Positions 9,225 to 46,592 of a stretch of DNA of 64,000 nucleotides are shown piece after piece. Made by a program: the position numbers and the translations under genes. Below the pieces are notes generated by a model that was given only the letters and a program-made list of their open reading frames with translations, had not been told where the DNA came from and ran no database searches. How positions within the stretch are numbered: position 1 is the stretch's first letter; each line of letters begins with the position of its first letter. Source of the stretch: Candidatus Falkowbacteria bacterium. GTDB taxonomy: Bacteria > Patescibacteriota > Patescibacteriia > Patescibacteriales > UBA12075. The stretch spans positions 22,868 through 86,867 of the forward strand of contig DOSJ01000019.1 of NCBI GenBank assembly GCA_003514005.1. The letters run 5' to 3'.

Positions 9225-9253
9225 TTGACATTATCTTGTTTTTGCGTAAAAAT
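9225..9253 (+). promoter_or_regulatory. candidate sigma70-type promoter
   Basis: TTGACA (9225-9230), then 16-17 nt, then TAAAAAT. Lies about 50 nt upstream of the GGAGGG-ATG at 9304. Confidence 0.45.
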
Positions 9254-9303
9254 AGAGTAAATTGCTCATAAAACAATAAAATAACTTAAATTTGGAGGGA
9301 AAA

Positions 9304-9705: not shown

Positions 9706-9723
9706 AAACAACAAACACACAAC

Positions 9724-9757
9724 AAACCCGGAAAAAAATTCCGGGTTTATTTTTTTT
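9724..9757 (+). terminator. rho-independent terminator
   Basis: Stem aaacccggaa / ttccgggttt with an A5 loop, followed by a T8 run. Confidence 0.8.
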
Positions 9758-9766
9758 ACAATTAAT

Positions 9767-10573
9767 TCATAATTCAATCCCAACCGGACAATGATCCGAC
9801 CCAAGCACTTTATCCAAAATATACGCGCTTTTAATTTTTTTCATTAAACTATCTGATACGCAAAAATAATCAATCCGCCAACCAACATTATTTCGCCGTG
9901 CGCCGGCGCGATAGCTCCACCAGGAATATTGGATTTTATTCGGATTAAGTTCACGGAAAGTGTCTTTGAAACCGGAAACCAAAAACCTATTCATCCATTC
10001 ACGTTCACGCGGATGAAACCCCGGGTTGCCGATATTTTCTTTAGGCCGCGCCAAATCGATTTCATTATGCGCGACATTAAAATCGCCCGTAACAATTAAC
10101 GGTTTGGTTTTTTCCAATTTTTTAAAATATTTTAACAATTTATCATTAAAATCAATTTTAAAATCCAAGCGCGACAATTCATGATTAGCATTGGGAAAAT
10201 AAATATTGGCCAAATAAAATTTGCCGAGGTCGATTATCTGAACACGCCCTTCATTGTCCCAATCCAATCTATCCAAATCCACAACTTTATAACTTTCAAC
10301 TTTCAAACTTTTTACTTTGTTACTTTCAACTTTCAAACTTTTTACTAAAACCGCCGTCCCCGAATATCCCGGCCGCTGTGCCGAATTCCAAAAAATATCA
10401 TAACCGATTTTTTCTGGATGCAAAATCTCGTCCAACTCTTTCTTGCGCGCCACCTCAGAAATTTTAATCTCCTGCAAACACAAAACATCCGGCTCTTCTT
10501 TTTTCAAAAAACCGAGAAGATCTTTTTTAATTACAGCGCGCAGGCCGTTTATATTCCAAGAGATTATTTTCAT
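9767..10573 (-). CDS. xth: exodeoxyribonuclease III
   Basis: Motifs ISWNINGLRA, LCLQEIK, GYSGTAV and SDHCPV. ATG 10573 (MKIISWN) preferred over the TTG at 10582. Contains a 30-bp tandem duplication. Confidence 0.9.
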   Translation of the reverse strand: MKIISWNINGLRAVIKKDLLGFLKKEEPDVLCLQEIKISEVARKKELDEILHPEKIGYDIFWNSAQRPGYSGTAVLVKSLKVESNKVKSLKVESYKVVDLDRLDWDNEGRVQIIDLGKFYLANIYFPNANHELSRLDFKIDFNDKLLKYFKKLEKTKPLIVTGDFNVAHNEIDLARPKENIGNPGFHPREREWMNRFLVSGFKDTFRELNPNKIQYSWWSYRAGARRNNVGWRIDYFCVSDSLMKKIKSAYILDKVLGSDHCPVGIEL

Positions 10574-10618
10574 ATAATACAAATCTTAAATCGAAAATCT
10601 GAAATCGAAAATCGAAAA

Positions 10619-12337
10619 TCACCAACTCCCTCCCCCACCCCCACCAAATCCACCACCCGAGTCACCTCCGCTAAAACCACTTCCGCCAGACGATGCCGTA
10701 GACGCCATAATAGTATTAGTACTAGATTGAAAACCGCCCAAGCTATTTGTAAAAGCCAGCACGGAAAAATTTCCCATATTCGCATCGCTATACCAAGATG
10801 GATTTGTCTGATAAATATTTTCAAATTGCTTTGCCCAGGCCGCTTCAACACCCAATACCATCGCAAAAGGCAATAATTTTTCAAAAATTTGCGGATTTTT
10901 TTCTGGGGCATTGTGAAAATTAATTCTGTCCTTTTCCGCAATATTCAAATACGTTTTTAAGCCAAGGATATGCTCGCGCGCCAACACGCCTTTCTCTGAT
11001 TTTTTCGGCATAAAATTACCAAAAATCATAATAAGTAATCCTGATAACGCGAAACTAACATAACCGATTATTCCAAAAAATTGTCCAAATAAAAATCCCA
11101 AAAACACAATTACTATGCCAAATACAAAATATTTTATCCGGACAGAATTCGGATTGGAAAGAAAATAACCTTTTTCAACAACCGATTGATATACCTTTTT
11201 TGTTATTAATTGCAAATCTTTAAAAAACTTATTTTTTAAATCCGACAACTTGATTTTGTTGTCATTGCCAAATAAAGCCTGAACTAAAGTTTTTTGATAT
11301 TCGTTTAAACCGGCGCTTTCATTTTTCAATTTTGTTAATTCATAATCATCGGATTGTAAAATATTTTTTTCTTGGATTTTCTCAATTTTCAAATAACCGC
11401 GTACAGCCAAATTTATAATCTCGGCCGAAATATCTTTCTGCTGTGCCTTTTCGTCGACAATCGTTCCGATCTCGGCCGGACTTAAATTATCCGGCGCGTC
11501 GAATTGAGCGACAATAGTCCCTCGACCTTTTGGATCACGTCCATTTTTTTTCCATGAAATAAATAAAAAATAAAACACAAAAAACGGCAATAAAATAATA
11601 TAGTTATCTTTGGCAATCTCAAAAAACGTTTTGAATACTGATGGTTTTTTTACGACCCCTTTCGGCAGTCCGATAACAACGGTAACGCCCTCATGCGCGC
11701 GCAAACTGTCATCGGTAAATACCAGCTTGTCAACCATGTTTTCCGCGCTAAAATTCAAACGGCTGGAAACGCATTCTGCCGTACTGCCGGATACTCCAGT
11801 GTAGCAGATAGAGCGCAAAGATTCTTTGTTGACGCTTTCAGGCAAGGTTACCGTTGTCTTTGATCGGCTGATCGGCGTGATCCAGTTGTTGCCGGTCGCG
11901 TTCCAATAAAGCTCGTCATAATCGGCAAAATAATTGATAGCCCGTTCCACTTTATAGTGCAGTACGTATCGCATCGCTCCGGTAACAAAAACATCAGCAT
12001 CGCCAATCTTGAGACGCTTGTCATTGCCTTTGCTTTCAATCTTAAACTCAACCGCTTTTCCCTCGCCGTCTGTAACGGAAAAATCCGAATAGCGCAGTTT
12101 AAAATTCCCGCCATTATTTTTGTACTTGTACGGCAAATCGCGAAAGATGCCGTGCTTCTGTTCCGTACCAAAATCATAGGCAATGCTTTCGTCAACTTCA
12201 ATCGATGCGTCTTTGTTGATTTTGATATCTACTGTAAAATCATTAATCTGCTCCTCGGCAAATGCCGGCGATGCAAAAAATAAACAAGCTGATATTAATA
12301 GGCAAACTTGAATAAATATTTTTTTTATTTTTGACAT
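10619..12337 (-). CDS. DUF2207-type membrane protein
   Basis: 572 aa. Signal peptide, extracytoplasmic N-domain (KHGIFRDLP), TM helices and a Gly-rich tail SGGSGFSGGDSGGGFGGGGGGSW typical of DUF2207. Confidence 0.8.
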   Translation of the reverse strand: MSKIKKIFIQVCLLISACLFFASPAFAEEQINDFTVDIKINKDASIEVDESIAYDFGTEQKHGIFRDLPYKYKNNGGNFKLRYSDFSVTDGEGKAVEFKIESKGNDKRLKIGDADVFVTGAMRYVLHYKVERAINYFADYDELYWNATGNNWITPISRSKTTVTLPESVNKESLRSICYTGVSGSTAECVSSRLNFSAENMVDKLVFTDDSLRAHEGVTVVIGLPKGVVKKPSVFKTFFEIAKDNYIILLPFFVFYFLFISWKKNGRDPKGRGTIVAQFDAPDNLSPAEIGTIVDEKAQQKDISAEIINLAVRGYLKIEKIQEKNILQSDDYELTKLKNESAGLNEYQKTLVQALFGNDNKIKLSDLKNKFFKDLQLITKKVYQSVVEKGYFLSNPNSVRIKYFVFGIVIVFLGFLFGQFFGIIGYVSFALSGLLIMIFGNFMPKKSEKGVLAREHILGLKTYLNIAEKDRINFHNAPEKNPQIFEKLLPFAMVLGVEAAWAKQFENIYQTNPSWYSDANMGNFSVLAFTNSLGGFQSSTNTIMASTASSGGSGFSGGDSGGGFGGGGGGSW

Positions 12338-12380: not shown

Positions 12381-12520
12381 TTGTCATTCCCGCGTAGGCG
12401 GGAATCTTGGTGTCAAAATAACAAAATATTTCTACTATAAAGTTTGTTATAAAAACACCTTTTTAAATTTCTTGTTTGTTTATTCTATTACCGAGATTCC
12501 CGCTTTCGCGGGAATGACAA
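12381..12520. mobile_element. MITE-like element, GTCATTCCCGCG hairpin-end family (copy A)
   Basis: Ends ttgtcattcccgcgtaggcgggaatc (12381-12406) and gattcccgctttcgcgggaatgacaa (12495-12520) are inverted. Each end is itself an 8-bp hairpin. Interior is homologous to copy B at 30779-30913. Confidence 0.7.
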
Positions 12521-12696: not shown

Positions 12697-12725
12697 ATAA
12701 TACTTTAATTCCCAAAATTTTTCAA
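12697..12725 (-). promoter_or_regulatory. candidate sigma70-type promoter
   Basis: On the minus strand: TTGAAA (12725-12720), 17 nt, TATTAT (12702-12697). Confidence 0.45.
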
Positions 12726-13405
12726 TGAACAATCCCTTAAAACCCTGGTATAAAAAATGGTGGGGCGTATTGGCATTATTAGCGCTTTTGTTTTTTATAA
12801 GCATATTTTTTGCTTTTGTTTTTTTGGTTATCAATTCCCGTGATACTGCGCCTAGCTCTGGCATCAATCCTTTGTTAACGCAAAAAGTTCCGGCGCTGGC
12901 GATCGGTACGGAAAAAAACTATTGGCTCGGAAGCGCAAATCCAAAAATTACGATTGTCGAGTTTGGCGATTTTGCCTGTTCCTACTGTCAAAAATCGTTT
13001 TCCAAAATCCGAGAAATCAGCCAATTATACAAAAACGATATCAAATACATTTACCGCGACTATCCTGTCGTATCCGATTATTCCGCCAAGCTGGCCTTGG
13101 CCGCGCGCTGTGCCGGCGAACAAGGACTTTTTTGGATAATGCATGACAAGTTGTACATCAACCAAGGCATTAGTACGGATCAAGAAATATTAAATCATTT
13201 CAAACAAACCGGAGGCAATGAAGCAAAATTTTCCACCTGTTACGACGCAAACAAATATCTTCCCGAAATCGAAAAAGACTTGAGCGACGGACAATCTCTT
13301 AACATCACCGGCACGCCGACGTGGTTTGTGAATGGACAGAGGCTCGAGGGAGATGTGCCGTATGAGTATTTTATTAACCTAATTTCTAACATATTAGGTA
13401 CTTAG
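12725..13405 (+). CDS. DsbA/thioredoxin-fold thiol:disulfide oxidoreductase, membrane-anchored
   Basis: 226 aa with an N-terminal TM helix. CxxC active site in FGDFACSYCQ and a DsbA-like C-terminal part (ITGTPTWFVNG). Confidence 0.75.
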   Translation: MNNPLKPWYKKWWGVLALLALLFFISIFFAFVFLVINSRDTAPSSGINPLLTQKVPALAIGTEKNYWLGSANPKITIVEFGDFACSYCQKSFSKIREISQLYKNDIKYIYRDYPVVSDYSAKLALAARCAGEQGLFWIMHDKLYINQGISTDQEILNHFKQTGGNEAKFSTCYDANKYLPEIEKDLSDGQSLNITGTPTWFVNGQRLEGDVPYEYFINLISNILGT

Positions 13406-13488
13406 GTGCTTGGGTACTTAGGGGTTTGGTTTATTACAATTTTACCTCAACCCTAAGCACCCAAGCACCTAAGTACCTAAGTACCTAA
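13394..13488. repeat. intergenic hairpin, CCTAAGTA word family
   Basis: ttaggtacttaggtgcttgggtacttagggg vs ccctaagcacccaagcacctaagtacctaa: about 30 bp with 1 mismatch. Left arm contains the dsbA-like stop; right arm ends 4 nt before the porG ATG. Confidence 0.75.
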
Positions 13489-13491: not shown

Positions 13492-14034
13492 ATGAAACAA
13501 ATTCGCATACACGGCCGCGGCGGCCAAGGCGTAGTTACGGCAGCGGAACTTATCGCCATCGCCGCATTTAACAACAACAAAGAAGCGCAGGCCTTTCCGT
13601 CTTTTGGCGTAGAGCGCACTGGCGCACCGATCGAGGCATTCGCGCGCATTGACGACAAACCGATTCGTACGCGCGAGCATGTATACCATCCGGATATTTT
13701 GATTGTCCAAGACGCTTCAGTCATGGCCGCTGTTGATGTTGCCAAGGGCTGTGATGAAAAAACAATCGTAATCATCAACACTTCCCTTTCCAAAGACGCG
13801 ATTAAGCTTAATTTACCAAAAGAAAATATTTTCCCGATCGATGCCACAAAAATTGCTTTGGAAATTCTTGGCAAAAATATCGTCAACACAATTATCCTCG
13901 GCGCCGTCGCCAAATCGACTAACCTTTTTACAATGGACGCTGTCAAAAAAGCCATCAAACAAAAGTTTGGCGGCAAGAGCCAGGAGTTGGTTGATAAGAA
14001 TATTAAGGCGGTGGAGCTGGCCTATAACATGTAA
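13492..14034 (+). CDS. porG: 2-oxoacid (pyruvate):ferredoxin oxidoreductase gamma subunit
   Basis: 180 aa. The N-terminus IRIHGRGGQGVVTAAELIA is typical of POR/VOR gamma subunits. Confidence 0.85.
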   Translation: MKQIRIHGRGGQGVVTAAELIAIAAFNNNKEAQAFPSFGVERTGAPIEAFARIDDKPIRTREHVYHPDILIVQDASVMAAVDVAKGCDEKTIVIINTSLSKDAIKLNLPKENIFPIDATKIALEILGKNIVNTIILGAVAKSTNLFTMDAVKKAIKQKFGGKSQELVDKNIKAVELAYNM

Positions 14035-14060
14035 ACCCTATTTTTGATTAATAGAACAAA

Positions 14061-14128
14061 GTTAATTAGTTGATTAGTTAATTAGGGTATAAATATTTAC
14101 ATCCTAATTAACTAATCAACTAATTAAC
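14061..14128. repeat. hairpin between porG and porD, TTAATTAG word family
   Basis: gttaattagttgattagttaattagg (14061-14086) is the exact reverse complement of cctaattaactaatcaactaattaac (14103-14128). Confidence 0.8.
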
Positions 14129-14144
14129 TAATTAACTAACAAAT

Positions 14145-14402
14145 ATGAACATAACCGCAAACCCCCAATCAACCCCAATCAACAAAACCGGCGGCTGGCG
14201 CACATACATCCCGGCAACCGACTATAACAAATGCATCGGCTGTGGCCGTTGTGCCAAAGTCTGCCCGGAAAACGCGATCAAAATGGTCGCAAAAAACGGT
14301 AAACAAATTCCGATTACAAATTTTGATTTCTGCAAAGGCTGCGGTCTGTGCGCGCTGGAGTGTCCGGTGAAGGCGATTGAGATGAAGCTTGATGTGAAAT
14401 AA
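14145..14402 (+). CDS. porD: 2-oxoacid:ferredoxin oxidoreductase delta subunit (2x[4Fe-4S] ferredoxin)
   Basis: 85 aa with two CxxCxxCxxxCP clusters (CIGCGRCAKVCP, CKGCGLCALECP). Confidence 0.85.
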   Translation: MNITANPQSTPINKTGGWRTYIPATDYNKCIGCGRCAKVCPENAIKMVAKNGKQIPITNFDFCKGCGLCALECPVKAIEMKLDVK

Positions 14403-14408
14403 AGCTGT

Positions 14409-14902
14409 CTTTTTTGTCATCTCGACCGAGCGAAGCGAGCGGAGAGATCTATAATACATCAATAAAGCACGCGCAATGTTCAATAAAAAAAGTTATAATT
14501 TCTATATTTACATTTTAAGCAATTACGACCGCAACTGTCTATACGTTGGATTTTGCAACGATATCGCCAGAAGAATTATCGAACACACACATAGCTTCGG
14601 ATGCGAATACTCAAAAAAGTACAAAACCTTTGATTTATTATATTATGAACATTATCAATATGTTAACGAAGCAATAGCCAGAGAGAAACAAATCAAAAGA
14701 TGGGGAAGAGATAAAAAAATAGCTTTAATAAAAACTAAAAATCCGGAATTAAAAAAATTAACCAAAAATTATTCAATGATTTTAGACTTTCTGAAAAAGA
14801 TATCTCTGAAATAGCTGATATTTTAAAAGAAAAATATTCAGCTAGGGATTAAAGTATTACAGATCTCTCCACTCGCTTCGCTCGGTCGAGATGACAAAAA
14901 AG
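14409..14902. mobile_element. GIY-YIG ORF bracketed by 42-bp terminal inverted repeats (element E)
   Basis: cttttttgtcatctcgaccgagcgaagcgagcggagagatct (14409-14450) matches the reverse complement of 14861-14902 at 41/42 positions. Inserted between porD and porA. Confidence 0.7.
14476..14814 (+). CDS. GIY-YIG nuclease family protein (small stand-alone URI/COG2827 type)
   Basis: 112 aa with NFYIYIL..LYVGFCNDIARRIIEH..YYE...AIAREKQIKRW.RDKK. About 45 percent identical by eye to ORF 16292-16594. Confidence 0.85.
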   Translation: MFNKKSYNFYIYILSNYDRNCLYVGFCNDIARRIIEHTHSFGCEYSKKYKTFDLLYYEHYQYVNEAIAREKQIKRWGRDKKIALIKTKNPELKKLTKNYSMILDFLKKISLK

Positions 14903-14950
14903 AGAAATAATTATTTTAAAATAATCATAATTCAATAAACAACAAATAAC

Positions 14951-16168
14951 ATGTCAACTAATAAATCTAATAGACAAATACTCGAGGGCTCACAGGCCAT
15001 CGCCCAACTAATCAATAACATCAAACCCGGCGTCGTATCCGCTTATCCAATCACTCCACAAACACATATCGTCGAAAACTTGGCAAAGTTCAAAGCCGAT
15101 GGCAAGGCGAAGTATGAATACGTCCGCGCCGAAAGCGAATTTGCTGCCGCTTCGATTGTTCTGGGTGCAAGCGCTACCGGTCTGCGTGTTTATACGGCCA
15201 CAAGCTCGCAAGGACTTTTGCTTATGAACGAAGTGGTATACAACATTGCCGGTATGCGTTTGCCTGTCGTTATGACAGTCGCAAACCGTGGCGTATCTGC
15301 GCCGATTACTATTTGGAACGACCACCAAGACGCTATGTCTGTTCGCGATGCCGGCTGGATTATGCTATTTGCCGAGAATCATCAGGAAGCGATTGAGCAA
15401 CATCTCTTAGCATACAAGATTGCGGAAAAGAAAAAAATTCCGGTCATGGTCAATATCGATGGTTTTGTTCTTACTCATACTTACGAAGGCGTGGAAGTGC
15501 CTTCATCAACAGAAATAAAAAAATTCTTACCTGACTATAAACCAAAAGCCGGTGAATATCTTGACACAGCACACCCCCGAACCTTTGGCGCCTTTGCCGC
15601 TCCGGCGCACTATATGGAGATTCGTCATGAGTTGCACGAGGACTTGCGCAATTGTCAATCGGAAATTTTGGAAGAATATGAAAGCTTAAAAAAACTGGTT
15701 CCAAACGCCATCAAACAAACGGAAAAAAACGCGCAGATAAATAATGGCTTGGTTGAATATTATGGACCAAAAAATCCCAAAATTGTTCTGGTCGCAATGG
15801 GTTCGCTAATCGGCACCATCAAAGACGCAGTTGACAAGCTCAATATCAAAAGCCATGTCAAACACTATGTCTCCCCCACCTCTGTCGGTGTTTTGAAAAT
15901 AAAAACCTTCCGTCCCTTCCCGGATAAAGCGATTGTAGATATTTTAAAAAACGCCAAATACTGCGCCGTTATCGAAAAGGCTGTTTCCCTTGGCGCTACC
16001 GACGGTCCTTTGGCTATAGATATTAAATCAGCCGCAAAAAACAGCATCAAAACCAAAATCCAAAGCTACGTTGTTGGCCTAGGTGGACGCGATATCACGC
16101 AGGACAGAATCGCAAGGATCGTTGTCGATGTGCAAAAAAAGGATGATCGGATGAAGTTTGTGGGATAA
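14951..16168 (+). CDS. porA: 2-oxoacid:ferredoxin oxidoreductase alpha subunit
   Basis: 405 aa. ILEGSQAIAQ..SAYPITPQT..ESEFAA..GA..TATSSQGLLLM is typical of POR alpha. Confidence 0.85.
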   Translation: MSTNKSNRQILEGSQAIAQLINNIKPGVVSAYPITPQTHIVENLAKFKADGKAKYEYVRAESEFAAASIVLGASATGLRVYTATSSQGLLLMNEVVYNIAGMRLPVVMTVANRGVSAPITIWNDHQDAMSVRDAGWIMLFAENHQEAIEQHLLAYKIAEKKKIPVMVNIDGFVLTHTYEGVEVPSSTEIKKFLPDYKPKAGEYLDTAHPRTFGAFAAPAHYMEIRHELHEDLRNCQSEILEEYESLKKLVPNAIKQTEKNAQINNGLVEYYGPKNPKIVLVAMGSLIGTIKDAVDKLNIKSHVKHYVSPTSVGVLKIKTFRPFPDKAIVDILKNAKYCAVIEKAVSLGATDGPLAIDIKSAAKNSIKTKIQSYVVGLGGRDITQDRIARIVVDVQKKDDRMKFVG

Positions 16169-16203
16169 TATACTTTTTACCCCAATGGAAAAAATATTTT
16201 CTT

Positions 16204-16707
16204 TTGTCATTTCGCAGCGAAGCGGAGAAATCCCTTATCCATGAATAATCCTCCTATTAGTTTTTTTAGCAAATACTAAAAAAACCATATTATGGCTACA
16301 AAGAAAGAATATAATTTTTATATCTACATATTGGCAAGCGACACAGGAACGTTATATATCGGTTTTACAAATAATCTTGAAAGACGAATCAAAGAACATA
16401 AAAGTGGAATAATAAAAGGATTCACTCAAAAATATGGTTGCAATAAATTAGTATATTATGAACATTATACTTATGTAAACAATACGCTTGAACGTGAAAA
16501 AGAATTGAAAAAATGGAATAGAAATAAAAAGCAAGATTTAATAAAATCAATGAATCCACACTGGAAAGATATTTCAATCGAATTGTTTACATAATTTTTT
16601 GTCATTCCGTAGCAAGATGAGAAAACCTTTAAACAAGAATTGCGTACAAAATGATCAATTCATTATCAACCGTTAAGGGATCTCTCCGCTTCGCTACGAG
16701 ATGACAA
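16204..16707. mobile_element. GIY-YIG ORF with 34-bp inverted ends plus nested miniature copy (element F)
   Basis: Left end ttgtcatttcgcagcgaagcggagaaatccctta (16204-16237) vs right end 16674-16707: 31/34 as reverse complement. An extra left-end-like copy lies at 16599-16631, just after the ORF stop. Confidence 0.65.
16292..16594 (+). CDS. GIY-YIG nuclease family protein (URI/COG2827 type)
   Basis: 100 aa with NFYIYILAS..GTLYIGFTNNLERRIKEHK..YYE...LEREKELKKWNRNKK..NPHWKD. Confidence 0.85.
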   Translation: MATKKEYNFYIYILASDTGTLYIGFTNNLERRIKEHKSGIIKGFTQKYGCNKLVYYEHYTYVNNTLEREKELKKWNRNKKQDLIKSMNPHWKDISIELFT

Positions 16708-16727
16708 AAACAATTACAGAATAAAAA

Positions 16728-17528
16728 ATGAAAACCAAACTCAAAAAACTAATCTCCCTAATCCTATTCACCCAGATTTTCCTCTGTATATTTTTGCTTT
16801 TCCCAAACCCATCAAACGCTGCCGATTCCTACACATTCAAAATCCCGATTCCCGGCTTTGAATCTGTTAAATTCGACGGCACAACCCGCCCGATTGCCGA
16901 ATTTATTCAAGCCGTTTACAAATACGCCATCGGCATCGTCGCCATCCTTGCCACAGTAGTAATAATGATCGGTGGCGTTGTCTGGATAACAGCAGCCGGC
17001 GACTCCGGCCGCATCGGCGAAGCTAAACAATATATTACCGGTGCCATGACCGGTTTGGTTTTAGCGCTTTGTTCATTTATGATATTGCAGACTGTGAATC
17101 CAGATTTGGTTACGTTTAAGCCGATTGGTGTAAAAACGGTAGACCCAATACCTTCCTCTTTATTATCAGACGACTCCTGTACTTCTCAATTTGGTACTTG
17201 GATTGGGGTATCAAACCAACATGACGAAAACGCAGCCAAAATCAATTGTAACTTAATTTGTGACAACAATTATAGTGAGTTAACTGAATACTCTTCTGGA
17301 TTTAAATATTGTTGTAAATGTGCTGTTTCATTAACTCAAAATCTAACTGGAAATCCTGATGACATTGGTTGTTGCGCATATTTTGACTTAACAAGCTTAA
17401 ACTGTTCTGGCCCTCATACGAATGTGACAAGACAATGGTGTAATGCAAATATACCTAATTCAAATTTTCAACCAGGCTTTAGCACAACGCTAACAACATG
17501 CGATTGTAATTTAATGAATTATAAATAA
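16728..17528 (+). CDS. TrbC/VirB2-like two-TM pilin-type protein with Cys-rich C-terminal domain
   Basis: 266 aa. Signal peptide, then a conserved hairpin module AIGIVAILATVVIMIGGVVWITAAGDSGRIGEAKQYITGA..VNPDLV (nt 16899-17132), then a 15-Cys tail. Family assignment is from memory of CPR T4SS-pilin-like proteins. Confidence 0.5.
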   Translation: MKTKLKKLISLILFTQIFLCIFLLFPNPSNAADSYTFKIPIPGFESVKFDGTTRPIAEFIQAVYKYAIGIVAILATVVIMIGGVVWITAAGDSGRIGEAKQYITGAMTGLVLALCSFMILQTVNPDLVTFKPIGVKTVDPIPSSLLSDDSCTSQFGTWIGVSNQHDENAAKINCNLICDNNYSELTEYSSGFKYCCKCAVSLTQNLTGNPDDIGCCAYFDLTSLNCSGPHTNVTRQWCNANIPNSNFQPGFSTTLTTCDCNLMNYK

Positions 17529-17530
17529 TT

Positions 17531-18553
17531 ATGTATAGAGTAATAAAATTAAATTTTATAATCTGTTTTATTTTTTTTGCCATTACTCCATTACTTGTTT
17601 CCGCCGAAGCCAATTGGACAATGCCTGACCCCAAAATACCTATTCCCGGCATGAAAGTTTTAAAAGATTTGCAGCCTGACTGCACTGAAACAGATTCAAA
17701 TGGTAAATCAATCTGCACCATGCCTTGGCTAAATGAATACATTGCCGGAATTTACAAATACGTTATCGGCATCGTAGCAATTCTCGCCACAATCGTAATG
17801 ATGATCGGTGGAGTAATTTGGATTACAGCCGCCGGCGACTCCGGGCGTATCGGCGAAGCCAAGCAATGGATAACCGGAGCGGTTACCGGCATGGTATTAG
17901 TTTTTTCTTCTTATACGATTCTATATTTTGTAAATCCGGATTTGGTGAAGTTAAAGCCGATTAAAGTGGAAAGAATTGTTAAAATGGAGCCGTTAAAACC
18001 CGCAAATATTTCTACAAATGCCTTTGTGAGCAATGCCTGCAAAGATACCGGAAGCAATAAAGTAATTTACTTTAACAATTATTCGGAAAAAACACCTATT
18101 CCAAGCGCATGCAGTGCGTACAGCGCAGAATTTGCAAAATATGGAGTTGACAAAAAAATATTGACTGCTATAGCTTCCCAGGAGTCGGGATGTAATCCAG
18201 GCTTAACAAGCTCGGCGGGCGCCTGTGGTATAATGCAATTGATGCCAGACACTGCCAAGATATATAATAAAGATGCTAGTTGCGAATGGTTAATACAGCA
18301 TCCTGAAGAAAGTATTAAAATTGCATCTTACTACATTATTGCAAATACTAATTTAAACACAAAAACATCTGATATTTTTGCTGGATATAATAGCGGTTAT
18401 GGAACCGGGGTAGTGAATGGGAAAGTCGGCGGTCTTGCCCCGAGTAGCGATTGCAAAGGATTTAAGGCATACGAATGCTGTATCAACCCCGGTGGACTAG
18501 TTGAAACACAAGATTATGTAATGAAAACTTTAGGGTATTATAATAGTCAATAA
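17531..18553 (+). CDS. TrbC/VirB2-like two-TM module fused to lytic transglycosylase (SLT) domain
   Basis: 340 aa. Paralogous N-terminal module (nt 17735-17968). C-terminal SLT motifs AIASQESGCNP, GIMQLMPDTA and AGYNSGYG. Confidence 0.65.
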   Translation: MYRVIKLNFIICFIFFAITPLLVSAEANWTMPDPKIPIPGMKVLKDLQPDCTETDSNGKSICTMPWLNEYIAGIYKYVIGIVAILATIVMMIGGVIWITAAGDSGRIGEAKQWITGAVTGMVLVFSSYTILYFVNPDLVKLKPIKVERIVKMEPLKPANISTNAFVSNACKDTGSNKVIYFNNYSEKTPIPSACSAYSAEFAKYGVDKKILTAIASQESGCNPGLTSSAGACGIMQLMPDTAKIYNKDASCEWLIQHPEESIKIASYYIIANTNLNTKTSDIFAGYNSGYGTGVVNGKVGGLAPSSDCKGFKAYECCINPGGLVETQDYVMKTLGYYNSQ

Positions 18554-18561
18554 AACACTTT

Positions 18562-18805
18562 ATGCCAAAAAAACTAAAACCAATCCACCCTGGAGAAATA
18601 TTAATGGAAGAGTTCTTGCTACCTGAATATCAGTCAATATCGTGTAGCAAAGGATATTAATGTTCCCGCGCGTCGAATTAACGAAATTGTACATGGAAAA
18701 AGAGCAATCAGCGCGGATACCGCTCTGCGACTTGGAAAATATTTTAAAGTTTCTCCGCAGTTCTGGCTAAATTTACAATCTCGCTATATAAATAGTGGCA
18801 CTTGA
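18562..18805 (+). pseudogene. frameshifted HigA-type (XRE HTH) antitoxin
   Basis: MPKKLKPIHPGEILMEEFLLP stops at 18660. The expected continuation ISQYRVAKDINVPARRINEIVHGKRAISADTALRLGKYFKVSPQFWLNLQSRY is intact in another frame up to TGA 18803-18805. No higB is adjacent. Confidence 0.7.
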
Positions 18806-18830
18806 CATTGTATTACAATTGTAATACAAT
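18802..18830 (+). promoter_or_regulatory. sigma70 promoter with overlapping 22-bp palindromic operator
   Basis: TTGACA (18802-18807), 17 nt, TACAAT (18825-18830). The spacer plus -10 is the perfect palindrome ttgtattacaa|ttgtaatacaa (18808-18829). Sits 27 nt upstream of the antitoxin ATG. Confidence 0.7.
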
Positions 18831-18857
18831 AATACCATAACTATTAACATTAAAATT

Positions 18858-19082
18858 ATGCGACAAGTATTAAGCATTTCAATGCCAGGACAACTAATAA
18901 GCAAGGTAAAAGAACGAATCGAAAACAGGGGTTTTAAATCTGTTAGCGATTATATCAAGTTCTTGATCAAAGAAGATGATGATTTTTTAACTGATGACGA
19001 GATATTAACGGCAGTGAAAGAAGCTGATCGTGATTACAAACTTGGTAAATTAAAAGTACTTAAATCATTAGATGACCTATAA
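18858..19082 (+). CDS. ribbon-helix-helix type antitoxin (RelB/ParD-like)
   Basis: 74 aa, acidic. Directly upstream (5-nt gap) of a RelE/YafQ-like toxin ORF, behind the palindromic operator. Confidence 0.55.
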   Translation: MRQVLSISMPGQLISKVKERIENRGFKSVSDYIKFLIKEDDDFLTDDEILTAVKEADRDYKLGKLKVLKSLDDL

Positions 19083-19087
19083 CAAGT

Positions 19088-19366
19088 ATGATAGTAGGAG
19101 AAATATTATATTCTAATACTTTTTGTAATTGCTACAAAAAAATATCTGTGGAATTGCAAAATATTACGAAAAAAAAAGTAGAAATTTTCAAAACCAACCC
19201 CCTGCATCCTTCACTTCGCCTTCATGAATTACATGGCAAATTGTCTGGCTTATGGTCCATTTCTATAAACACTAATTACAGAATTATTTTTAAAAGAAAA
19301 GAAAATGGTGATATTATTTTTGTAATAATCGGCAAACACGATACCTACAAAAATCTAAATAATTAA
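19088..19366 (+). CDS. RelE/YafQ-family mRNA interferase toxin
   Basis: 92 aa with NPLHPSLRLHELHGKLSGLWSISINTNYRIIF....GDIIFVIIGKHD, typical of RelE/YafQ toxins. Confidence 0.7.
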   Translation: MIVGEILYSNTFCNCYKKISVELQNITKKKVEIFKTNPLHPSLRLHELHGKLSGLWSISINTNYRIIFKRKENGDIIFVIIGKHDTYKNLNN

Positions 19367-19368
19367 AA

Positions 19369-19399
19369 CCTGGATTCCCGCCTCCGCGGGAATGACAAG
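19369..19399. repeat. solo hairpin end of the GTCATTCC MITE family
   Basis: cctggattcccgcctccgcgggaatgacaag closely matches the right end of copy D (37638-37667). No partner end nearby. Confidence 0.6.
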
Positions 19400-19403
19400 A
19401 TGA

Positions 19404-19622
19404 ATGATTTATTTTACAAAATACTCCGAACAAAAATTTGAAATCCTGAACAAGTACCAGGTGTTTTTTCGTAAGGAAGAGATTTGTGACGCGGTTTTAA
19501 ATCCGGACAAAATTTCAAAAAAAGGGAAATATTTGTCAGCGCGGAAAGACGGGATTAAGGTTGTTTATGATAAGAAGGCGGGTGTTATTCGCGTTATTAC
19601 TTTTTATCCAATTAAAATATAA
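19404..19622 (+). CDS. small DUF4258-like protein (putative toxin)
   Basis: 72 aa. Resembles the DUF4258 pattern (..NPDKISKKGKYLSARK...KVVYDKKAGVIRVITFYP) and is followed by a DUF2283-like ORF. Weak assignment. Confidence 0.4.
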   Translation: MIYFTKYSEQKFEILNKYQVFFRKEEICDAVLNPDKISKKGKYLSARKDGIKVVYDKKAGVIRVITFYPIKI

Positions 19623-19624
19623 TA

Positions 19625-19708
19625 CGAATACTACAAATAACATTCAAATACTACAAAAATTTTTCAATTCAACATTTTGTAGTATTTGAATATCATTTGT
19701 AGCATTTG
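19625..19708. repeat. intergenic hairpin, TACTACAAA word family
   Basis: cgaatactacaaataacattcaaatactacaaaa vs ttttgtagtatttgaatatcatttgtagcatt. The same words occur at 45563-45640 and 49455-49490. Confidence 0.7.
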
Positions 19709-19732
19709 AATTATAAGTTTTTACACAAAAAC

Positions 19733-19954
19733 ATGCTCTACGACCCCGAAGCCAACATAATATCCCTGCCAATCGGCAAAGGAAAGATTACTCATACGAG
19801 TGAATTCGGTAATTTTATTATCCACCTATCCGACGCGAAAAAACCGATACTGATCGAGATTTTAGATGCGTCAAAGTTTATGGGGCAGTTTGATAAGATT
19901 AAGAATGTTGGGGATATTAAAAAAATGTTACCGACAATCAACCAATTGAATTAA
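19733..19954 (+). CDS. DUF2283-like protein (putative antitoxin partner)
   Basis: MLYDPEANIISLPIGKGKI..IIHLSDAKKPILIEILDASKF fits DUF2283. ATG 19733 preferred; the track TTG start 19706 lies inside the hairpin. Confidence 0.6.
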   Translation: MLYDPEANIISLPIGKGKITHTSEFGNFIIHLSDAKKPILIEILDASKFMGQFDKIKNVGDIKKMLPTINQLN

Positions 19955-19970
19955 AATTTTTTTAAAAAAA

Positions 19971-20036
19971 GTTAATTAGTTAATTAGTGATTAGGAGCAT
20001 AATCCACTCGGCCTAATCACTAATTAACTAATCAAC
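19971..20036. repeat. hairpin upstream of porB, TTAATTAG word family
   Basis: gttaattagttaattagtgattagg vs cctaatcactaattaactaatcaac, a near-perfect 25-bp inverted repeat. Confidence 0.75.
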
Positions 20037-20050
20037 TAATAACATATTAT

Positions 20051-20995
20051 ATGCCAATAACCACAGAACAAAAAACAATCACAAAACCAAAACCCACCCC
20101 CTCCCTCTTCGCCGCCGGCCACCGGGGTTGTGCGGGATGCGGACAGATGCTGGCCGCGCGCACTGTTATCAATGCGCTAGGGACCAATACGATTATTGCG
20201 AACGCGACCGGGTGTTTGGAAGTTACCACCACGCCTTATCCGGAAAGCGCATGGGGTGTGCCGTGGATACATTCACTTTTTGAAAATCCGGCCGCGGTTG
20301 CGTCTGGAATATTGGCGGGACTTAAACAAAAAGGCAAGGACAAAAAAGTAAAAATCCTTGTACAGGGCGGCGACGGCGGTACTTTTGATATCGGTTTTGG
20401 GCTGATCAGCGGTATGTGGGAACGAGGCGAAAATATTCTTTATGTTTGCTACGACAATGAAGCCTACTCCAATACCGGCATGCAGGCATCAGGCGCAACA
20501 CCTTGGGCATCCAATACCACGACCACCCCGGCCGGAAGCGGAACAACGATAGACGCAATCGGCTCGCATCAAAGCAAAAAAGACATGATCGCGATCGCTT
20601 TGGCGCACGGTGTCAAATACGTCGCACAATGTACAACCGGCTACCTGGAAGACATCGAGGCCAAAGTAAAAAAAGCGGCAACAATCGAAGGTCCGTCATA
20701 TATCCAGATCCTTGCTCCCTGCATACCCGGCTGGCACATAAAACCGGACCAGGCCATGAGCCTAAGCCGTCTTGCCACCCAAACCGGCCTTTATCCCCTT
20801 TTGGAATATACTGACGGAGCGTTAACCAAAGTTATGCCGGTCCCAGCTAATACGCCGCGCGTCGAAGAATATCTAAAACCGCAAGGACGCTTTTCTCATC
20901 TATTCAAAGGCGACCACGGCAAAGAATTGATCGCGCAAGTACAGGCTTTGGCGGATGGGAATATTTTGAAGTATGGATTGAAAAAAGTGACTTAA
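20051..20995 (+). CDS. porB: 2-oxoacid:ferredoxin oxidoreductase beta subunit (TPP-binding)
   Basis: 314 aa with GHRGCAGCG, GGDGGTFDIGF and YVCYDNEAYSNTG, typical of POR beta. Confidence 0.85.
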   Translation: MPITTEQKTITKPKPTPSLFAAGHRGCAGCGQMLAARTVINALGTNTIIANATGCLEVTTTPYPESAWGVPWIHSLFENPAAVASGILAGLKQKGKDKKVKILVQGGDGGTFDIGFGLISGMWERGENILYVCYDNEAYSNTGMQASGATPWASNTTTTPAGSGTTIDAIGSHQSKKDMIAIALAHGVKYVAQCTTGYLEDIEAKVKKAATIEGPSYIQILAPCIPGWHIKPDQAMSLSRLATQTGLYPLLEYTDGALTKVMPVPANTPRVEEYLKPQGRFSHLFKGDHGKELIAQVQALADGNILKYGLKKVT

Positions 20996-21042
20996 GTTAA
21001 TTAGTAATTAGTTAATTAGGGAATAAAAAATAATCCTCTTTT

Positions 21043-21153
21043 TTGTCATCTCGCAGCGAAGCGGAGAGATCCCTTAACGATTAATTATATATAGATTATT
21101 TTATTTTTTGAACCATGTTTAAGAGATTCCTCCGCTTCGCTACGGAATGACAA
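21043..21153. mobile_element. ORF-less miniature of the GIY-YIG-element ends (element G)
   Basis: ttgtcatctcgcagcgaagcggagagatccctta (21043-21076) and taagagattcctccgcttcgctacggaatgacaa (21120-21153) are inverted (about 28/34), separated by 43 nt. Confidence 0.65.
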
Positions 21154-21170
21154 AAAAAGTGAAATAACAA

Positions 21171-21208
21171 AAAATAAAAATCGGTTATTAAAACCGATTT
21201 TTATTTTA
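21171..21208. terminator. bidirectional terminator between convergent porB and rpoC
   Basis: Stem aaatcggtt / aaccgattt flanked by an A-run on the left and a T-run on the right. Confidence 0.65.
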
Positions 21209-21261
21209 TTATCTAAACAATTATCAAATCCCTATTCCCTAAGTACCTATGCCCTAATTAC

Positions 21262-24200
21262 CTAATAAATCTTCCTCTCCCGATTCCCCTTATACCCTGT
21301 CCCTGCCGGTATCAAGCGGCCGATAATAACATTCTCTTTCAATCCTTCCAGATAATCGATCTTGCCCGTAACCGCGGATTCGATCAAAACGCGAGCGGTT
21401 TCTTGGAATGATGCGGCGGATAGGAAACTGTCGGTTGACAAAGATGCTTTGGTAATACCCATAAGCAAACGAGTAGCTTTGATCTCTTTATTATTCTTGC
21501 GTCGTGCGCGCGCCAATACGCTGCCCTCGACTATTTCACCGGGCAAAAGATCAGAGTCGATCGTTTCGCTGATATAGAAGCGCGAGAACATCTGCTTGGC
21601 AATAATCTCAATATGTTTATCATTCAAAGGCTGACCTTGTGATGAATAAACGTTTTGAATTTCTTTGATAATATAGCGCTGTGTGCTTAAGCGGTCTTTG
21701 AGCGTGAATAACTGCTGTAAATCCATACTGCCGTCAGTCAATTGGTCGCCTTTCTTAACCTCTTCGCCCGCCTGCACCATAATCGACATTCCTTTGGGAA
21801 CGATAAATTCTTTTACTTTTTTCGTTTCCACCTTAATCTTTACGGACTTTTCATCAATCTCGACAACGCCGCCGTTATTCGCGATCACAACAATGTCTCC
21901 AGCCGTAAACAAGCGTGTACCGGCGCTGACTTTATCGCCTTCTTTCACTTCAATCTTCGGTTCAAAAGCTTCGGCAGATTTTTTGCCTTTGGTTTTAATA
22001 CCACTGTTTTTCTTATCACTGGCGGCTTTTTGCTGAGCTTCTTTTATGGTTTCCGCGAAATAATATTTATCAACGTCAATGCCGTCATAATTAATCTTGA
22101 GTATTTTTACCTGTGGGTTGCTGACTGTGGTTTTTCCGGTTTCATCCTCAATCGTCCGCTGTCCGGCTTCGATCGAAACCAAGCCGTCTACATCCGAAAT
22201 AAAGGCTTTGCGCTTTGGCGGCCGGCATTCGAATATTTCTTCCACGCGAGGCAAACCTTGGGTAATATCTTCACCGCCGGCAACACCACCCGAATGGAAG
22301 GTTCTCATAGTCAGCTGTGTTCCCGGCTCACCGATCGATTGCGCGGCAATAATTCCGACTGCGGTACCCAAAGAAACTTCTTTGTTGTGACCAAGATCCC
22401 AGCCATAGCAATGTGTACAAACACCGCGATCAAGTTTGCAGCTAAGCACGGAACGGATACAAGCTTCATTAACTTCTTCGTCCTGAATGGATTCAATAGT
22501 ATCTTCCACCATCAACGTGCCTTTTGGCACCAGAACCTTGCCTTTGACATTTTTCAAATCATCCGCCAAATAACGTCCGAGAATCCGATCCATTAAAGTC
22601 GTACCCATATTCTCGCTATCAATTTTTGTAAATACCAAACCTTCGGTATCGCCGCAATCATCGTCTGTGATAATAATATCTTGTGAAACATCCACCAAAC
22701 GTCTAGTCAAATAACCGGCATTAGCGGTACGCAAGGCAGTATCGGACAAACCTTTACGCACGCCATGGCTGGAAATAAAGTACTCCAAAACATCAAAACC
22801 GCGTTTGAAGTTTCCTTTGACAGGCAATTCGATAATATCACCCGAAGGAGAAGTCACAAGGCCCTTCATGCCCAGAATCTGCGTCAACTGTGCCCAGCTT
22901 CCACGGGCGCCGGAATCGATCATAGAAAATACCGGACCGTCTTTTGGCAAGCCCTTTTTACAAATATCCGTCACTCTTTCTTTTACACCTGACCAAAGCT
23001 CAATAACCTTGGCATAACGCTCGGAGTCGGTCAAAAGACCTTCGTCGTATTGATCTTGGATTTTTTCAACCATCTCTTGCGTATCAGAAATCAAAACATC
23101 TTTTTCCTCAAAGCGCGGCAAATCGCCCATACCCCAAGAAAGTCCGCTTTTTGTAATATAGCTAAAGCTTTTTTCTTTCAAATCATCCAAAAATTCACCG
23201 GTCTGTTTCGGACCATAATAGCGATAGCACAATTTTACCAAATTTTTCAATTTTCCTTTATCAACGACATGATTAACAAAGCGCAATTTTTCCGGCAAGA
23301 TATCATTAAAAATAATTCGTCCAACCGTAGTCTTGGTAACGCCGATATTTTCAAGTTTTACGAATATCGGATCATGCAGTTTGATGACTTTTGATTCATA
23401 AGCCAAGCGCGCTTCTTCACCAGATGAAAAACGCTTGATGTTTTTTTCTTCAATACTGCTTTTTACTTCGTTGGTAATATAATAAGTTCCCCAAACAATA
23501 TCTTGACCGGGCGCGACCACCGGGTCACCAGTAGCCGGCTTCAGCAGGTTCTTTGCAGAAAGCATGATGTTTTTTGCTTCATCCACCGCTTCTTTTGTCA
23601 ATGGAACATGTACGGCCATTTGATCACCATCAAAGTCAGCGTTAAACGCACTGCAAACCAAAGGGTGAATCTGAATCGCCTTGCCCTCAATCAAGATCGG
23701 CTTGAAGGCTTGGATACCCAAGCGATGAAGCGTTGGCGCACGGTTTAACATAACATAAGCGCCGTCAATGATTTTTTCCAAAATATCCCAAACAATATCT
23801 GCGCCGGATTCGATAAAACGCGAAGCACTGCGTACATTGTGTACTACTTCTTTTTCAATCAATTTGCTTATGATAAAAGGTTTGAAAAGCTCGATAGCCA
23901 TCAATTTTGGCAAACCGCATTGATCAAGTTTCAGTTTCGGATTTACCACGATAACGCTACGTCCGGAATAATCAATACGTTTCCCAAGCAAGTTCTGACG
24001 GAAACGGCCTTGTTTTCCTTTGAGCGAATCAGCCAAAGATTTTAACATGCGTTTCTGTCCAGTAGACGCGATAACGGTCTTGCCATGACGAGCAGAGTTG
24101 TCAATCAAAGCATCGACCGCTTCCTGCAACATTCTTTTCTCATTGCGCTGAATAACTTCCGGTGCGTTCAGGTCAATCAGCTGGCGAAGACGATTGTTAC

Positions 24201-25245: not shown

Positions 25246-25256
25246 ATATTTTATTA

Positions 25257-25329
25257 AATTCTAATTTCTAATTTCTAAAGCCTAAATTTATGATTAAATT
25301 TAGAAATTAGAAATTAGAAATTAGAAATT
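25257..25329. repeat. rpoB-rpoC intergenic hairpin, TTAGAAA word family
   Basis: aattctaatttctaatttctaaagcctaaattt vs aaatttagaaattagaaattagaaattagaaat. The right arm is 4 units of a 7-nt period. Confidence 0.8.
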
Positions 25330-39780: not shown

Positions 39781-39785
39781 TAAAA

Positions 39786-46581: not shown

Positions 46582-46592
46582 ATACAAATTTT

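Follow-up and report, generated by a model that had tools for sequence, protein, structure and literature searches.

An interrupted por gene cluster in Candidatus Falkowbacteria: conserved pilin content and spacers rich in repeat elements

In Thermotoga and Pyrococcus the genes of the four-subunit 2-oxoacid:ferredoxin oxidoreductase (POR) are contiguous and follow the order gamma-delta-alpha-beta. Here we analyzed a por cluster in which they are not contiguous, in a 64,000-nt stretch of a Candidatus Falkowbacteria bacterium, a tiny inhabitant of groundwater (Patescibacteriota; assembly GCA_003514005.1, contig DOSJ01000019.1, positions 22,868 to 86,867 of the forward strand). This stretch is referred to as the window throughout, and coordinates are those of the window unless a relative is named. 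An earlier note on this DNA had described the cluster as a porGDAB operon split by mobile elements and a 3.9-kb accessory islet, with all four genes intact. The observation holds, in that mobile DNA does interrupt the operon while its genes are intact; for the most part, a gene order specific to the clade and selfish repeats that settled in the spacers explain it in ordinary terms. We consider it probable that the cluster is a clade-specific por operon with an ancestral, pilin-containing order, whose spacers were later colonized by selfish or repeat elements.

The foreign-looking components of the cluster have described counterparts as well. 23S rRNA intervening sequences, which gave the family PF05635 its name, are substrates of RNase III. 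Open reading frames (ORFs) of the same families as those met below also occur in non-intron insertions of rRNA genes in bacteria of the Candidate Phyla Radiation (CPR) (PMC11270868). VirB2-like pilins are abundant in Patescibacteria, at times in arrays (PMC12102498). Ssn proteins are single-domain GIY-YIG nucleases that cleave single-stranded DNA (ssDNA) beside a hairpin motif (Chenal et al. 2025, PMC11893778). SsnA has 94 aa, and its motif, called NTS or more generally SRM, has the consensus CGTCATTCCCGCGMAVGCGGGAATCYRG, usually lies on either side of the nuclease gene and is concentrated around certain genes; in Neisseria, SsnA cleaves ssDNA that carries an NTS and reduces transformation, and NTS-gene-NTS arrangements in Neisseria have been proposed to limit locus replacement by transformation (PMC11893778).

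Gene content and order of the por cluster

The gene order and identities claimed in the earlier note agree with Pfam and NCBIfam profile scans of the listed ORFs. The por genes and the genes conserved beside them are as follows, with nonsynonymous divergence (dN) taken against relatives of about 80% identity:

12725-13405, + strand: dsbA-like gene, thioredoxin fold (Pfam Thioredoxin_4 and DSBA), directly 5′ of porG in most of 80 loci
13492-14034, + strand: porG (gamma), Pfam POR 1.3e-41, NCBIfam PRK08534 225.8 bits against an equivalog cutoff of 225, dN 0.11-0.12
14145-14402, + strand: porD (delta, 2x[4Fe-4S] ferredoxin), Pfam Fer4 families, NCBIfam PorD_KorD 86.8 bits against a cutoff of 60
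14951-16168, + strand: porA (alpha), Pfam POR_N 3.7e-72 and PFOR_II, full-length matches in 80 relatives
16728-17528, + strand: VirB2-like pilin 1, Pfam T4SS_pilin, with a signal peptide, two transmembrane segments and a Cys-rich C-terminal region
17531-18553, + strand: VirB2-like pilin 2, fused to an SLT lytic transglycosylase domain (Pfam T4SS_pilin and SLT)
19404-19622, + strand: 72-aa gene, weakly DUF4258-like (5 of 16 orthologues match DUF4258, best E 7.8e-4; the window copy has no match)
19733-19954, + strand: DUF2283 gene, Pfam DUF2283 1.5e-4, 22.3 bits against a cutoff of 23, dN 0.11-0.12
20051-20995, + strand: porB (beta, binding thiamine pyrophosphate and [4Fe-4S]), Pfam TPP_enzyme_C, best NCBIfam match PorB 2e-99, dN 0.14-0.15

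As relatives we used the best 80 PorA matches, from metagenome-assembled genomes (MAGs) of Falkowbacteria, Parcubacteria and other Patescibacteria at 82-48% identity (labelled L001 and so on), and mapped the window proteins onto them by tblastn, every locus being centered on por. Both porA and porB were present in 45 of these relatives and a complete por cluster in 40. The order dsbA-porG-porD-porA...porB, with a convergent rpoC, was widely conserved across the 80 loci. The distance from porA to porB in the window is 3,882 nt, as the 3.9 kb of the earlier note implied, but a recent split of the operon by an accessory islet is contradicted by the relatives: the two genes lie at least 934 nt apart in 42 of the 45, and of the 40 complete clusters 38 have a pilin-family gene between them, in many cases with no more than -17 to +18 nt as spacers. 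The synteny comparison that the note had proposed as a check thus comes close to overturning the note's own reading, as the relatives share the interrupted order and near-contiguous porA and porB were found only in the distant L058 (166 nt), L080 (145 nt) and L053 (528 nt), each with a PorA identity of at most 57%. The most tightly packed clusters retain the pilin gene, and a separate ORF lister agreed on both: L038 reads porG-10-porD-14-porA-4-pil-8-unk-5-DUF2283-12-porB (spacers in nt), and in L063 porA and the pilin gene overlap by 4 nt while only 2 nt separate the pilin gene from porB. Overall, porG to porB spans 7,504 nt in the window compared to 3,034-6,438 nt in relatives.

Both window pilin genes scored above the Pfam cutoff (PF18895), and so did T4SS_pilin in six of six distant orthologues tested. 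The second pilin gene was found in only a subset of relatives, and the pilin genes evolve faster than the rest (dN 0.23-0.52). No domain of a type IV secretion system (T4SS) was detected among the window proteins scanned or in the called genes of L081; the neighbors of the pilin genes are por genes. In a neighbor-joining tree without support values, the pilin-bearing L076 and L079 branch outside two pilin-less ingroup lineages, which suggests that these two lineages lost the gene. We also observed that the pilin C-termini are Cys-rich and extracytoplasmic and that a DsbA-like gene is conserved 5′ of porG (12725-13405 and 16728-17528); the operon may alternate genes of an envelope pair, DsbA and pilin, with those of a cytoplasmic enzyme.

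The 72-aa ORF and the DUF2283 gene were found together in 21 loci and the 72-aa ORF alone in one more, and 22 loci are marked on the tree as carriers of the pair. In the same neighbor-joining tree, again read without support values, loci carrying both the pilin gene and the DUF pair form one clade that includes the window, and the pair is fixed in the window's whole subclade. The dN of the 72-aa ORF (0.125-0.165) is as low as that of the POR subunits. The DUF2283 gene probably starts at ATG 19733 and not at the listed TTG 19706, because its orthologues begin M(I/L)YDPEAN. The spacer between the two genes measures -4 to +18 nt in relatives or holds a cassette gene of the kind described below, and the spacer between DUF2283 and porB is reduced to 2-12 nt in L030, L038 and L077. 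A single-sequence AlphaFold2 model of the 72-aa ORF was unusable (pLDDT 49), a PDB profile search with its family gave no matches, and a literature search yielded no paper pairing DUF4258 with DUF2283. Because the pilin gene occurs in 38 of 40 clusters, and the DUF pair is fixed in the subclade and evolves as slowly as the enzyme, we regard the core of the 3.9-kb stretch, that is, the pilin gene and the DUF pair, as old and conserved operon content. By the same comparison of gene orders, pilin 1 is a conserved operon member and not a recent insert, and the contiguous order of Thermotoga and Pyrococcus is the wrong baseline for this clade.

The genes porG, porD, porA and porB are intact, codirectional and strongly constrained, with dN of 0.11-0.18 across the four subunits. 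The earlier note's statement that all four are full length and keep their cofactor motifs was borne out: the PorD translation contains two CxxCxxCxxxCP motifs, and C27, C30, C55, C224, GDG107-109 and N141 of PorB are invariant in an alignment of 45 sequences (the window and 44 relatives). The best NCBIfam models were PorG, PorD, PorA and PorB. The enzyme is an ordinary four-subunit POR/VOR-type 2-oxoacid:ferredoxin oxidoreductase; since PorG alone reached an equivalog cutoff, the other three subunits scoring below theirs, pyruvate is a putative substrate and a different 2-oxoacid is conceivable.

The window is identical to the public MAG contig LBUC01000003.1 of GCA_000992375.1. Furthermore, an identical PorB occurs on 23 contigs, and 19 further places are reported with mostly the same neighboring genes. 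Thus, the arrangement is probably not an artefact of assembly.

Selfish-looking genes, repeats and hairpins in the spacers

Two GIY-YIG genes, several inverted repeats and toxin-antitoxin (TA) genes are interspersed with the conserved genes:

12382-12519: ORF-less canonical SRM/NTS inverted pair 5′ of dsbA, consisting of TGTCATTCCCGCGTAGGCGGGAATCTTG and its inverted partner, both arms fitting the published degenerate pattern
14408-14903, + strand: Ssn-type element 1, 56-nt inverted arms, 93% complementary, starting with TTTGTCATCTCG (a variant SRM)
14476-14814, + strand: GIY-YIG gene of element 1, 112 aa, Pfam GIY-YIG 4.7e-14
16195-16716, + strand: Ssn-type element 2, 55-nt inverted arms, one more copy of the arm lying inside the element at 16596-16613
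16292-16594, + strand: GIY-YIG gene of element 2, 100 aa, Pfam GIY-YIG 2.3e-17
18562-18800, + strand: frameshifted orphan HigA-like helix-turn-helix antitoxin pseudogene, translated in two frames, the joined sequence matching HTH_3 at 1.3e-7
18802-18830, + strand: promoter-like TTGACA-17-TACAAT, 11 of 12 positions matching, the best site of the region, overlapping a perfect 24-nt palindrome at 18807-18830
18858-19082, + strand: antitoxin resembling ribbon-helix-helix (RHH) proteins, no Pfam match
19088-19366, + strand: RelE/HigB-like toxin, Pfam HigB-like 31.8 bits against a cutoff of 27
19368-19398, - strand: solo SRM/NTS-type hairpin GGATTCCCGCCTCCGCGGGAATGACAA directly 3′ of the RelE stop, 87% identical to the copy at 12490-12520, z -2.9
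21039-21157: ORF-less miniature element 3′ of porB, 39-nt arms

GIY-YIG is the only confident domain in both nuclease-like proteins, and among solved structures the single-domain UPF0213 proteins 1zg2 and 1ywl come closest. The two proteins are 49% identical and their arms differ, as would be expected if each enzyme had a motif of its own. The published degenerate SRM pattern matched the window four times compared to 0.04 times in shuffles; the matches are TGTCATTCCCGCGTAGGCGGGAATCTTG and three similar copies, which make up two ORF-less inverted pairs at 12382/12492 and 30780/30886. The arms of both elements begin with the leader TTTGTCATYYCG. This leader motif had 12 matches in the window against 2.3 expected by chance, and 9 of the 12 lie within 12.4-21.2 kb, which is 14% of the window (P ~3e-6 by sites, ~8e-4 by elements). 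On each feature tested the GIY-YIG elements fit the Ssn/SRM description, and a nuclease role is predicted for them.

None of the 80 relatives has a GIY-YIG gene in a por spacer. We therefore take the GIY-YIG genes with their inverted repeats to be lineage-specific insertions, as is the ORF-less miniature copy; the earlier note's view of the elements as mobile insertions stands and gains this restriction to one lineage. The miniature element that it had placed after porB is real, and because its termini are 76-81% identical to those of element 2, it is an ORF-deleted derivative of an element-2-type copy. ORF-less SRM pairs were also present in the por spacers of L012, L015, L026 and L027, a comparison biased by the fact that all loci are por-centered. 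No target-site duplications were evident around the Ssn elements, where the spacers no longer align with those of relatives at ~80% protein identity. Elsewhere in the window, ORF-less inverted pairs with a TTTGTCATTCC leader lie at 30780-30913 (canonical SRM/NTS) and at 37513-37667 (with a divergent interior, TTTGTCATTCCTGACAC...).

The RHH and RelE genes, 5 nt apart, present an antitoxin followed by a RelE-fold toxin and a palindromic operator on a promoter-like site, as expected of a type II TA module of the RelE/ParE kind. The site at 18802-18830 is likely an autoregulated promoter/operator of this module and could also read through to porB. The module is patchy among relatives: in L003 and L007 its position matches that in the window, whereas the array of L002 contains a RelE gene at another site. 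Of three TA modules claimed for this stretch, one, RHH-RelE, is intact, while the other two resolve into the frameshifted orphan HigA-like gene and the conserved DUF4258-like/DUF2283 pair. PADLOC returned nothing significant for the islet proteins.

Hairpins make up the remaining spacer content. They and the neighboring RNA polymerase genes are as follows:

13394-13488: 8-nt-periodic hairpin of TACTTAGG units, no ORF, 37-nt arms, -55.6 kcal/mol, z -9.6
14060-14139: 8-nt-periodic hairpin before porD, TTAATTAG units, no ORF, 35-nt arms, z -10.3
19618-19715: hairpin of TACTACAAA/ATTCAAA units inserted between the DUF4258-like and DUF2283 genes, which normally overlap, 41-nt arms, z -9.2
19970-20037: 8-nt-periodic hairpin of TTAATTAG units, 26-nt arms, z -8.1, ending 13 nt before the porB ATG
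20995-21263: split-open periodic hairpin 3′ of porB, arms 20995-21025 and 21233-21263
21262-25245, - strand: rpoC, named from the RNA polymerase beta-prime domains annotated on the public contig that matches the window
25347-28772, - strand: rpoB, likewise named from RNA polymerase beta domains annotated on that contig

The hairpins that the earlier note had listed before porG, porD and porB are real (arms 26-37 nt, z -8.1 to -10.3), and a fourth, between the 72-aa ORF and DUF2283, had been left unlisted. The first overlaps the dsbA stop and ends 3 nt ahead of the porG ATG, and the loop of the split hairpin after porB holds the ORF-less SRM pair 21039-21157 as well as a bidirectional terminator-like hairpin at 21171-21207. 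However, the idea that these hairpins are dedicated por signals did not survive a count over the window: with a stem score of at least 14 as threshold, hairpins were called in 22 of its 51 intergenic spacers, the one between rpoB and rpoC included, and at the orthologous por spacers of relatives they are sporadic (6/62, 10/64, 9/63, 7/22 and 5/19). Some 12-16 of the 22 are periodic, built of tandem 7-8-nt units whose flavors in the window are TTAATTAG, TACTTAGG, AATTTCT, AAAGTTA and TACTACAAA/ATTCAAA. Outside por, periodic hairpins lie at 1274-1362, 25255-25323 (rpoB|rpoC), 33062-33117, 39626-39682, 39785-39866, 44722-44807, 45571-45637, 46591-46682, 51497-51602, 53356-53445 and 58781-58844; they often fill the spacer and end at most 25 nt from a start codon, and they flank a tRNA-Arg gene on both sides. 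Long inverted repeats without 7-8-nt units were seen in large spacers at 29172-29287 (within the 570-nt gap upstream of rpoB), 52649-52751, 53981-54121 and 57843-57915. An Rfam scan of the window returned one tRNA only, and no family matched the hairpins.

Close relatives differ in the same spacers. Among the four closest, L001-L003 show no long stem at porG|porD, porD|porA and DUF2283|porB, where their spacers measure 11-43 nt, and L001 has one marginal stem between dsbA and porG. L004 carries stems in all five por spacers and the same terminator-like hairpin after porB, there inside periodic arms of another flavor; L002 has only ~4 nt where L004 and the window carry a hairpin after porB.

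In addition, the por spacers of relatives often hold single small genes, namely 23S_rRNA_IVP (26 copies) and PDDEXK_3 (5 copies), many of which are bracketed by periodic inverted arms that lie 0-40 nt from the ends of the coding sequence. In L010, arms of the porD hairpin's flavor (TTAATTAG) bracket a 23S_rRNA_IVP cassette (9577-9948). At the unk|DUF2283 spacer, hairpins of GCTAATCTGCGAATAAATGC flavor are empty in L017 (13255-13380) and L004 (13365-13455), and in L019 (4440-4925) arms of this flavor enclose a 125-aa PDDEXK_3 ORF in the loop. The cargo at one spacer differs among close relatives, with PDDEXK_3 in L023 (8560-9060) and L030 and 23S_rRNA_IVP in L068 (3440-3950). We regard the hairpins before porG, porD and porB as empty members of this class of cassette-bearing palindromes. 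In L016 (2285-2485) and L010 (8040-8200) the periodic arm 5′ of 23S_rRNA_IVP cassettes is expanded into long tandem arrays (e.g. GAAAATATGAAATTAT). The repeat structure suggests that periodic arms grow by slippage.

Candidate identities for the hairpins were rejected in two cases. RAYT-mobilized repetitive extragenic palindromic (REP) sequences do not fit, as the arms are of many unrelated flavors and share no conserved REP consensus, and the short unit repeats do not resemble TIGR arrays. No RAYT or IS200/IS605 transposase was found among the window proteins scanned, a scan outside which most window ORFs lie. Going by titles and abstracts, no paper that a search on hairpins retrieved deals with periodic hairpins in CPR bacteria, and a large hairpin survey makes no mention of CPR.

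Expression of the cluster and its possible origins

Thirteen consecutive genes lie on the + strand across the array, every inserted gene is on that strand, the insertions are all intergenic and the por genes are undamaged. From porG to porB the + strand has no convincing terminator-like site; weak matches occur at 13401, 15289, 17037 and 19578, and the total number of matches in the scan does not exceed that in shuffles. The first strong terminator candidate is the bidirectional hairpin 21171-21207. We argue that the periodic hairpins do not stop transcription because one lies between rpoB and rpoC, and that a dedicated ancestral porB promoter is unlikely because only 2-12 nt lie between DUF2283 and porB in the three relatives named above. 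Judged by gene order, read-through from upstream together with the added TA promoter is the likeliest route of porB expression; a single long transcript is also what the tightly packed clusters of relatives imply. A porB-specific promoter cannot be claimed for the window, where only the 18802-18830 site and the hairpin after porB stand out, and -10-like hexamers seen by eye in the hairpin loops were discarded, as they have no properly spaced -35 and AT-rich loops yield them by chance. Processing of RNase III type is possible by analogy with rRNA intervening sequences, and nothing requires it. A Shine-Dalgarno core (GGAG/GAGG/AGGA within 20 nt 5′ of the start) precedes only 2 of 52 window genes; thus, translation initiation seems to be independent of Shine-Dalgarno pairing.

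Taken together, we propose that the ancestral order was (dsbA)-porG-porD-porA-[VirB2-like pilin gene(s)]-porB, to which the window's subclade would have added the DUF4258-like/DUF2283 pair before porB. Nearly every spacer of the operon would later have been colonized in this genome by small selfish or repeat elements, comprising two Ssn-type GIY-YIG genes in their own SRM-like arms, SRM pairs that lack an ORF and a solo SRM, four periodic hairpins of 7-8-nt units, likewise without an ORF, and a fifth split open 3′ of porB, and the RHH-RelE module with the decayed HigA-like gene. With all insertions intergenic, the inserted genes operon-oriented and no recognizable intrinsic terminator brought in, the coding sequences would have stayed intact. 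Transcription would still begin upstream of porG (or dsbA) and continue across the array as far as the terminator-like hairpin 3′ of porB, with the RHH-RelE promoter at 18802-18830 probably serving as a second entry that also reaches porB, and the hairpins would be tolerated passengers that may incidentally stabilize or segment the mRNA.

Several points weigh against this account. A promoter scan gave 34 sites against 28.7 expected in shuffles, no better overall, and co-transcription, promoter use and any processing are deduced from gene order only. Start codons follow at 3-13 nt from the ends of stable stems (-30 to -56 kcal/mol), and such stems could pause transcription or block initiation. 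One subclade, comprising L051, L055, L056, L062 and L072 (~7000-11200 per locus), has dsbA, porG and porD inverted as a block that stands upstream of porA in divergent orientation; in those of its loci that reach far enough, the pilin gene and porB come after porA. Because of this inversion relative to porA, por can function as two transcription units. Furthermore, the arms of both GIY-YIG genes are SRM variants that fail the strict published pattern, the neighbor-joining tree of PorA+PorB has no support values, and only dN could be used, dS being saturated or undefined and omega correspondingly rough.

The scenario of the earlier note, if the insertion of mobile elements and the 3.9-kb islet into a once contiguous porGDAB operon is taken as recent, with porB left to a new promoter of its own or to RNase III processing, accounts for some of these data: three of the hairpins, which exist and are very stable, stop 3-13 nt short of por start codons, the GIY-YIG elements are lineage-specific, and long stems that enclose ORFs, as seen in relatives, resemble 23S rRNA intervening sequences. 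We nevertheless consider it improbable, as the split is ancient and conserved, the hairpins occur window-wide and are absent from most orthologous spacers, and the shortest DUF2283-porB spacers leave no room for an ancestral porB promoter. That the cluster is a decaying duplicate of a second, contiguous por operon elsewhere in the genome is highly improbable, given four full-length genes with invariant cofactor residues and a dN as low as that of the single copies of relatives; no por paralogue was found within the 64-kb window, and no genome with two loci among the best 80 matches.

Other readings concern the repeats themselves. The hairpins could be selected regulatory RNAs, acting as REP-like stabilizers, attenuators or decouplers that tune gene expression within long operons, por included. 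They are strictly intergenic, often occupy a whole spacer and occur inside obligate operons such as rpoB-rpoC; they have no U-tract and so are not classic terminators, and arm complementarity is kept even though the sequence differs between sites and genomes. However, their presence varies at the same spacer among close relatives, they have no Rfam match, and the same arms carry selfish-looking 23S_rRNA_IVP or PDDEXK_3 genes in relatives, which mobile, self-propagating DNA explains better, and we hold a regulatory role to be unlikely. By analogy with Neisseria, the SRM/Ssn cluster might instead be functional, with Ssn nucleases cutting incoming motif-bearing ssDNA and so limiting replacement of the locus by transformation. 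The strong clustering of SRM-type termini on por, the recurrence of ORF-less SRM pairs in por spacers of four relatives and the activity of Neisseria SsnA would agree with such a role, but the comparison is biased by its por-centered loci, and SRMs are confined to spacers, in which the por cluster, rich in short genes, is rich as well; this role appears quite improbable. A last reading, possible though rather doubtful as a whole, joins two proposals: that the pilin-like protein and the DUF pair are functional POR partners in this clade, for example a membrane tether or a regulatory pair co-translated with PorB, in a five- to seven-gene unit, and that the periodic hairpins are the empty form of undescribed miniature mobile cassettes. 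The loop of such a cassette could carry a single small gene (23S_rRNA_IVP, PDDEXK_3) or a terminator, and together with Ssn/SRM elements the cassettes would settle preferentially in operon spacers of streamlined CPR genomes.

Significance and comparison with described systems

A large clade of Patescibacteria has non-contiguous por genes, with a gene for a pilin-like membrane protein built into the operon by overlapping start and stop codons, which raises the question of the role of such a protein beside a core fermentative enzyme. On the reading favored here, the Ssn/SRM nuclease-repeat system would extend to CPR bacteria, and very small genomes would tolerate dense colonization of operon spacers by several kinds of selfish repeat without gene loss. 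We consider the pilin gene within the operon and the periodic hairpins, with their empty and filled forms, the more interesting leads; through the latter, the spread of small cassette genes among uncultured bacteria could be followed. The literature searched contained no report of a pilin gene fixed inside a por operon or of a syntenic, slow-evolving DUF4258-like/DUF2283 pair beside porB and, judged by titles and abstracts, none of periodic-arm hairpins carrying cassette genes in CPR bacteria.

Compared to porGDAB of Thermotoga and Pyrococcus, the cluster has the same subunits in the same gamma-delta-alpha-beta order and the same cofactor motifs (two [4Fe-4S] in delta; GDG...N and four Cys in beta). 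In contrast to those operons, a VirB2-like pilin gene lies between alpha and beta and dsbA ahead of gamma, and the window's subclade adds the DUF4258-like/DUF2283 pair between alpha and beta; the genes are not contiguous, which is a trait of gene order and not of the enzyme. The fixed synteny and slow evolution of the DUF pair, a candidate TA-like pair, are atypical of mobile TA modules.

The pilins share PF18895, tandem copies and variable C-terminal parts with the VirB2-like arrays of Patescibacteria, and one window copy is fused to a VirB1-like SLT domain. Unlike those arrays, they do not lie beside virB4 or T4SS genes but at a fixed site in a metabolic operon across a large clade; the paper on Patescibacteria VirB2 does not mention por or ferredoxin (PMC12102498).

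With Ssn/NTS (PMC11893778) the agreement extends to GIY-YIG-only proteins of 100-112 aa (94 aa in SsnA), to inverted 40-56-nt arms on both sides of the gene, to clustering around particular genes and to the window's TGTCATTCCCGCGTAGGCGGGAATCTTG, which is near-identical to the Neisseria consensus. Here, however, the gene-adjacent arms are variants and the canonical SRM copies are ORF-less pairs, and the host belongs to the Patescibacteria, which are not mentioned in that paper.

The periodic hairpins resemble 23S rRNA intervening sequences and the insertions in CPR rRNA genes (PMC11270868) in having a small ORF of the same families (23S_rRNA_IVP, GIY-YIG) in a long stem, whereas here they lie between protein genes of an operon and the por copies of the window are empty. 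Like REP sequences and bacterial interspersed mosaic elements (BIMEs), and like miniature inverted-repeat transposable elements (MITEs), they are short intergenic hairpin repeats present at many sites and tolerated in operons, with ORF-less and ORF-bearing copies; in contrast to these, they consist of tandem 7-8-nt units of many flavors without a single consensus, and their cargo in relatives is 23S_rRNA_IVP or PDDEXK_3.

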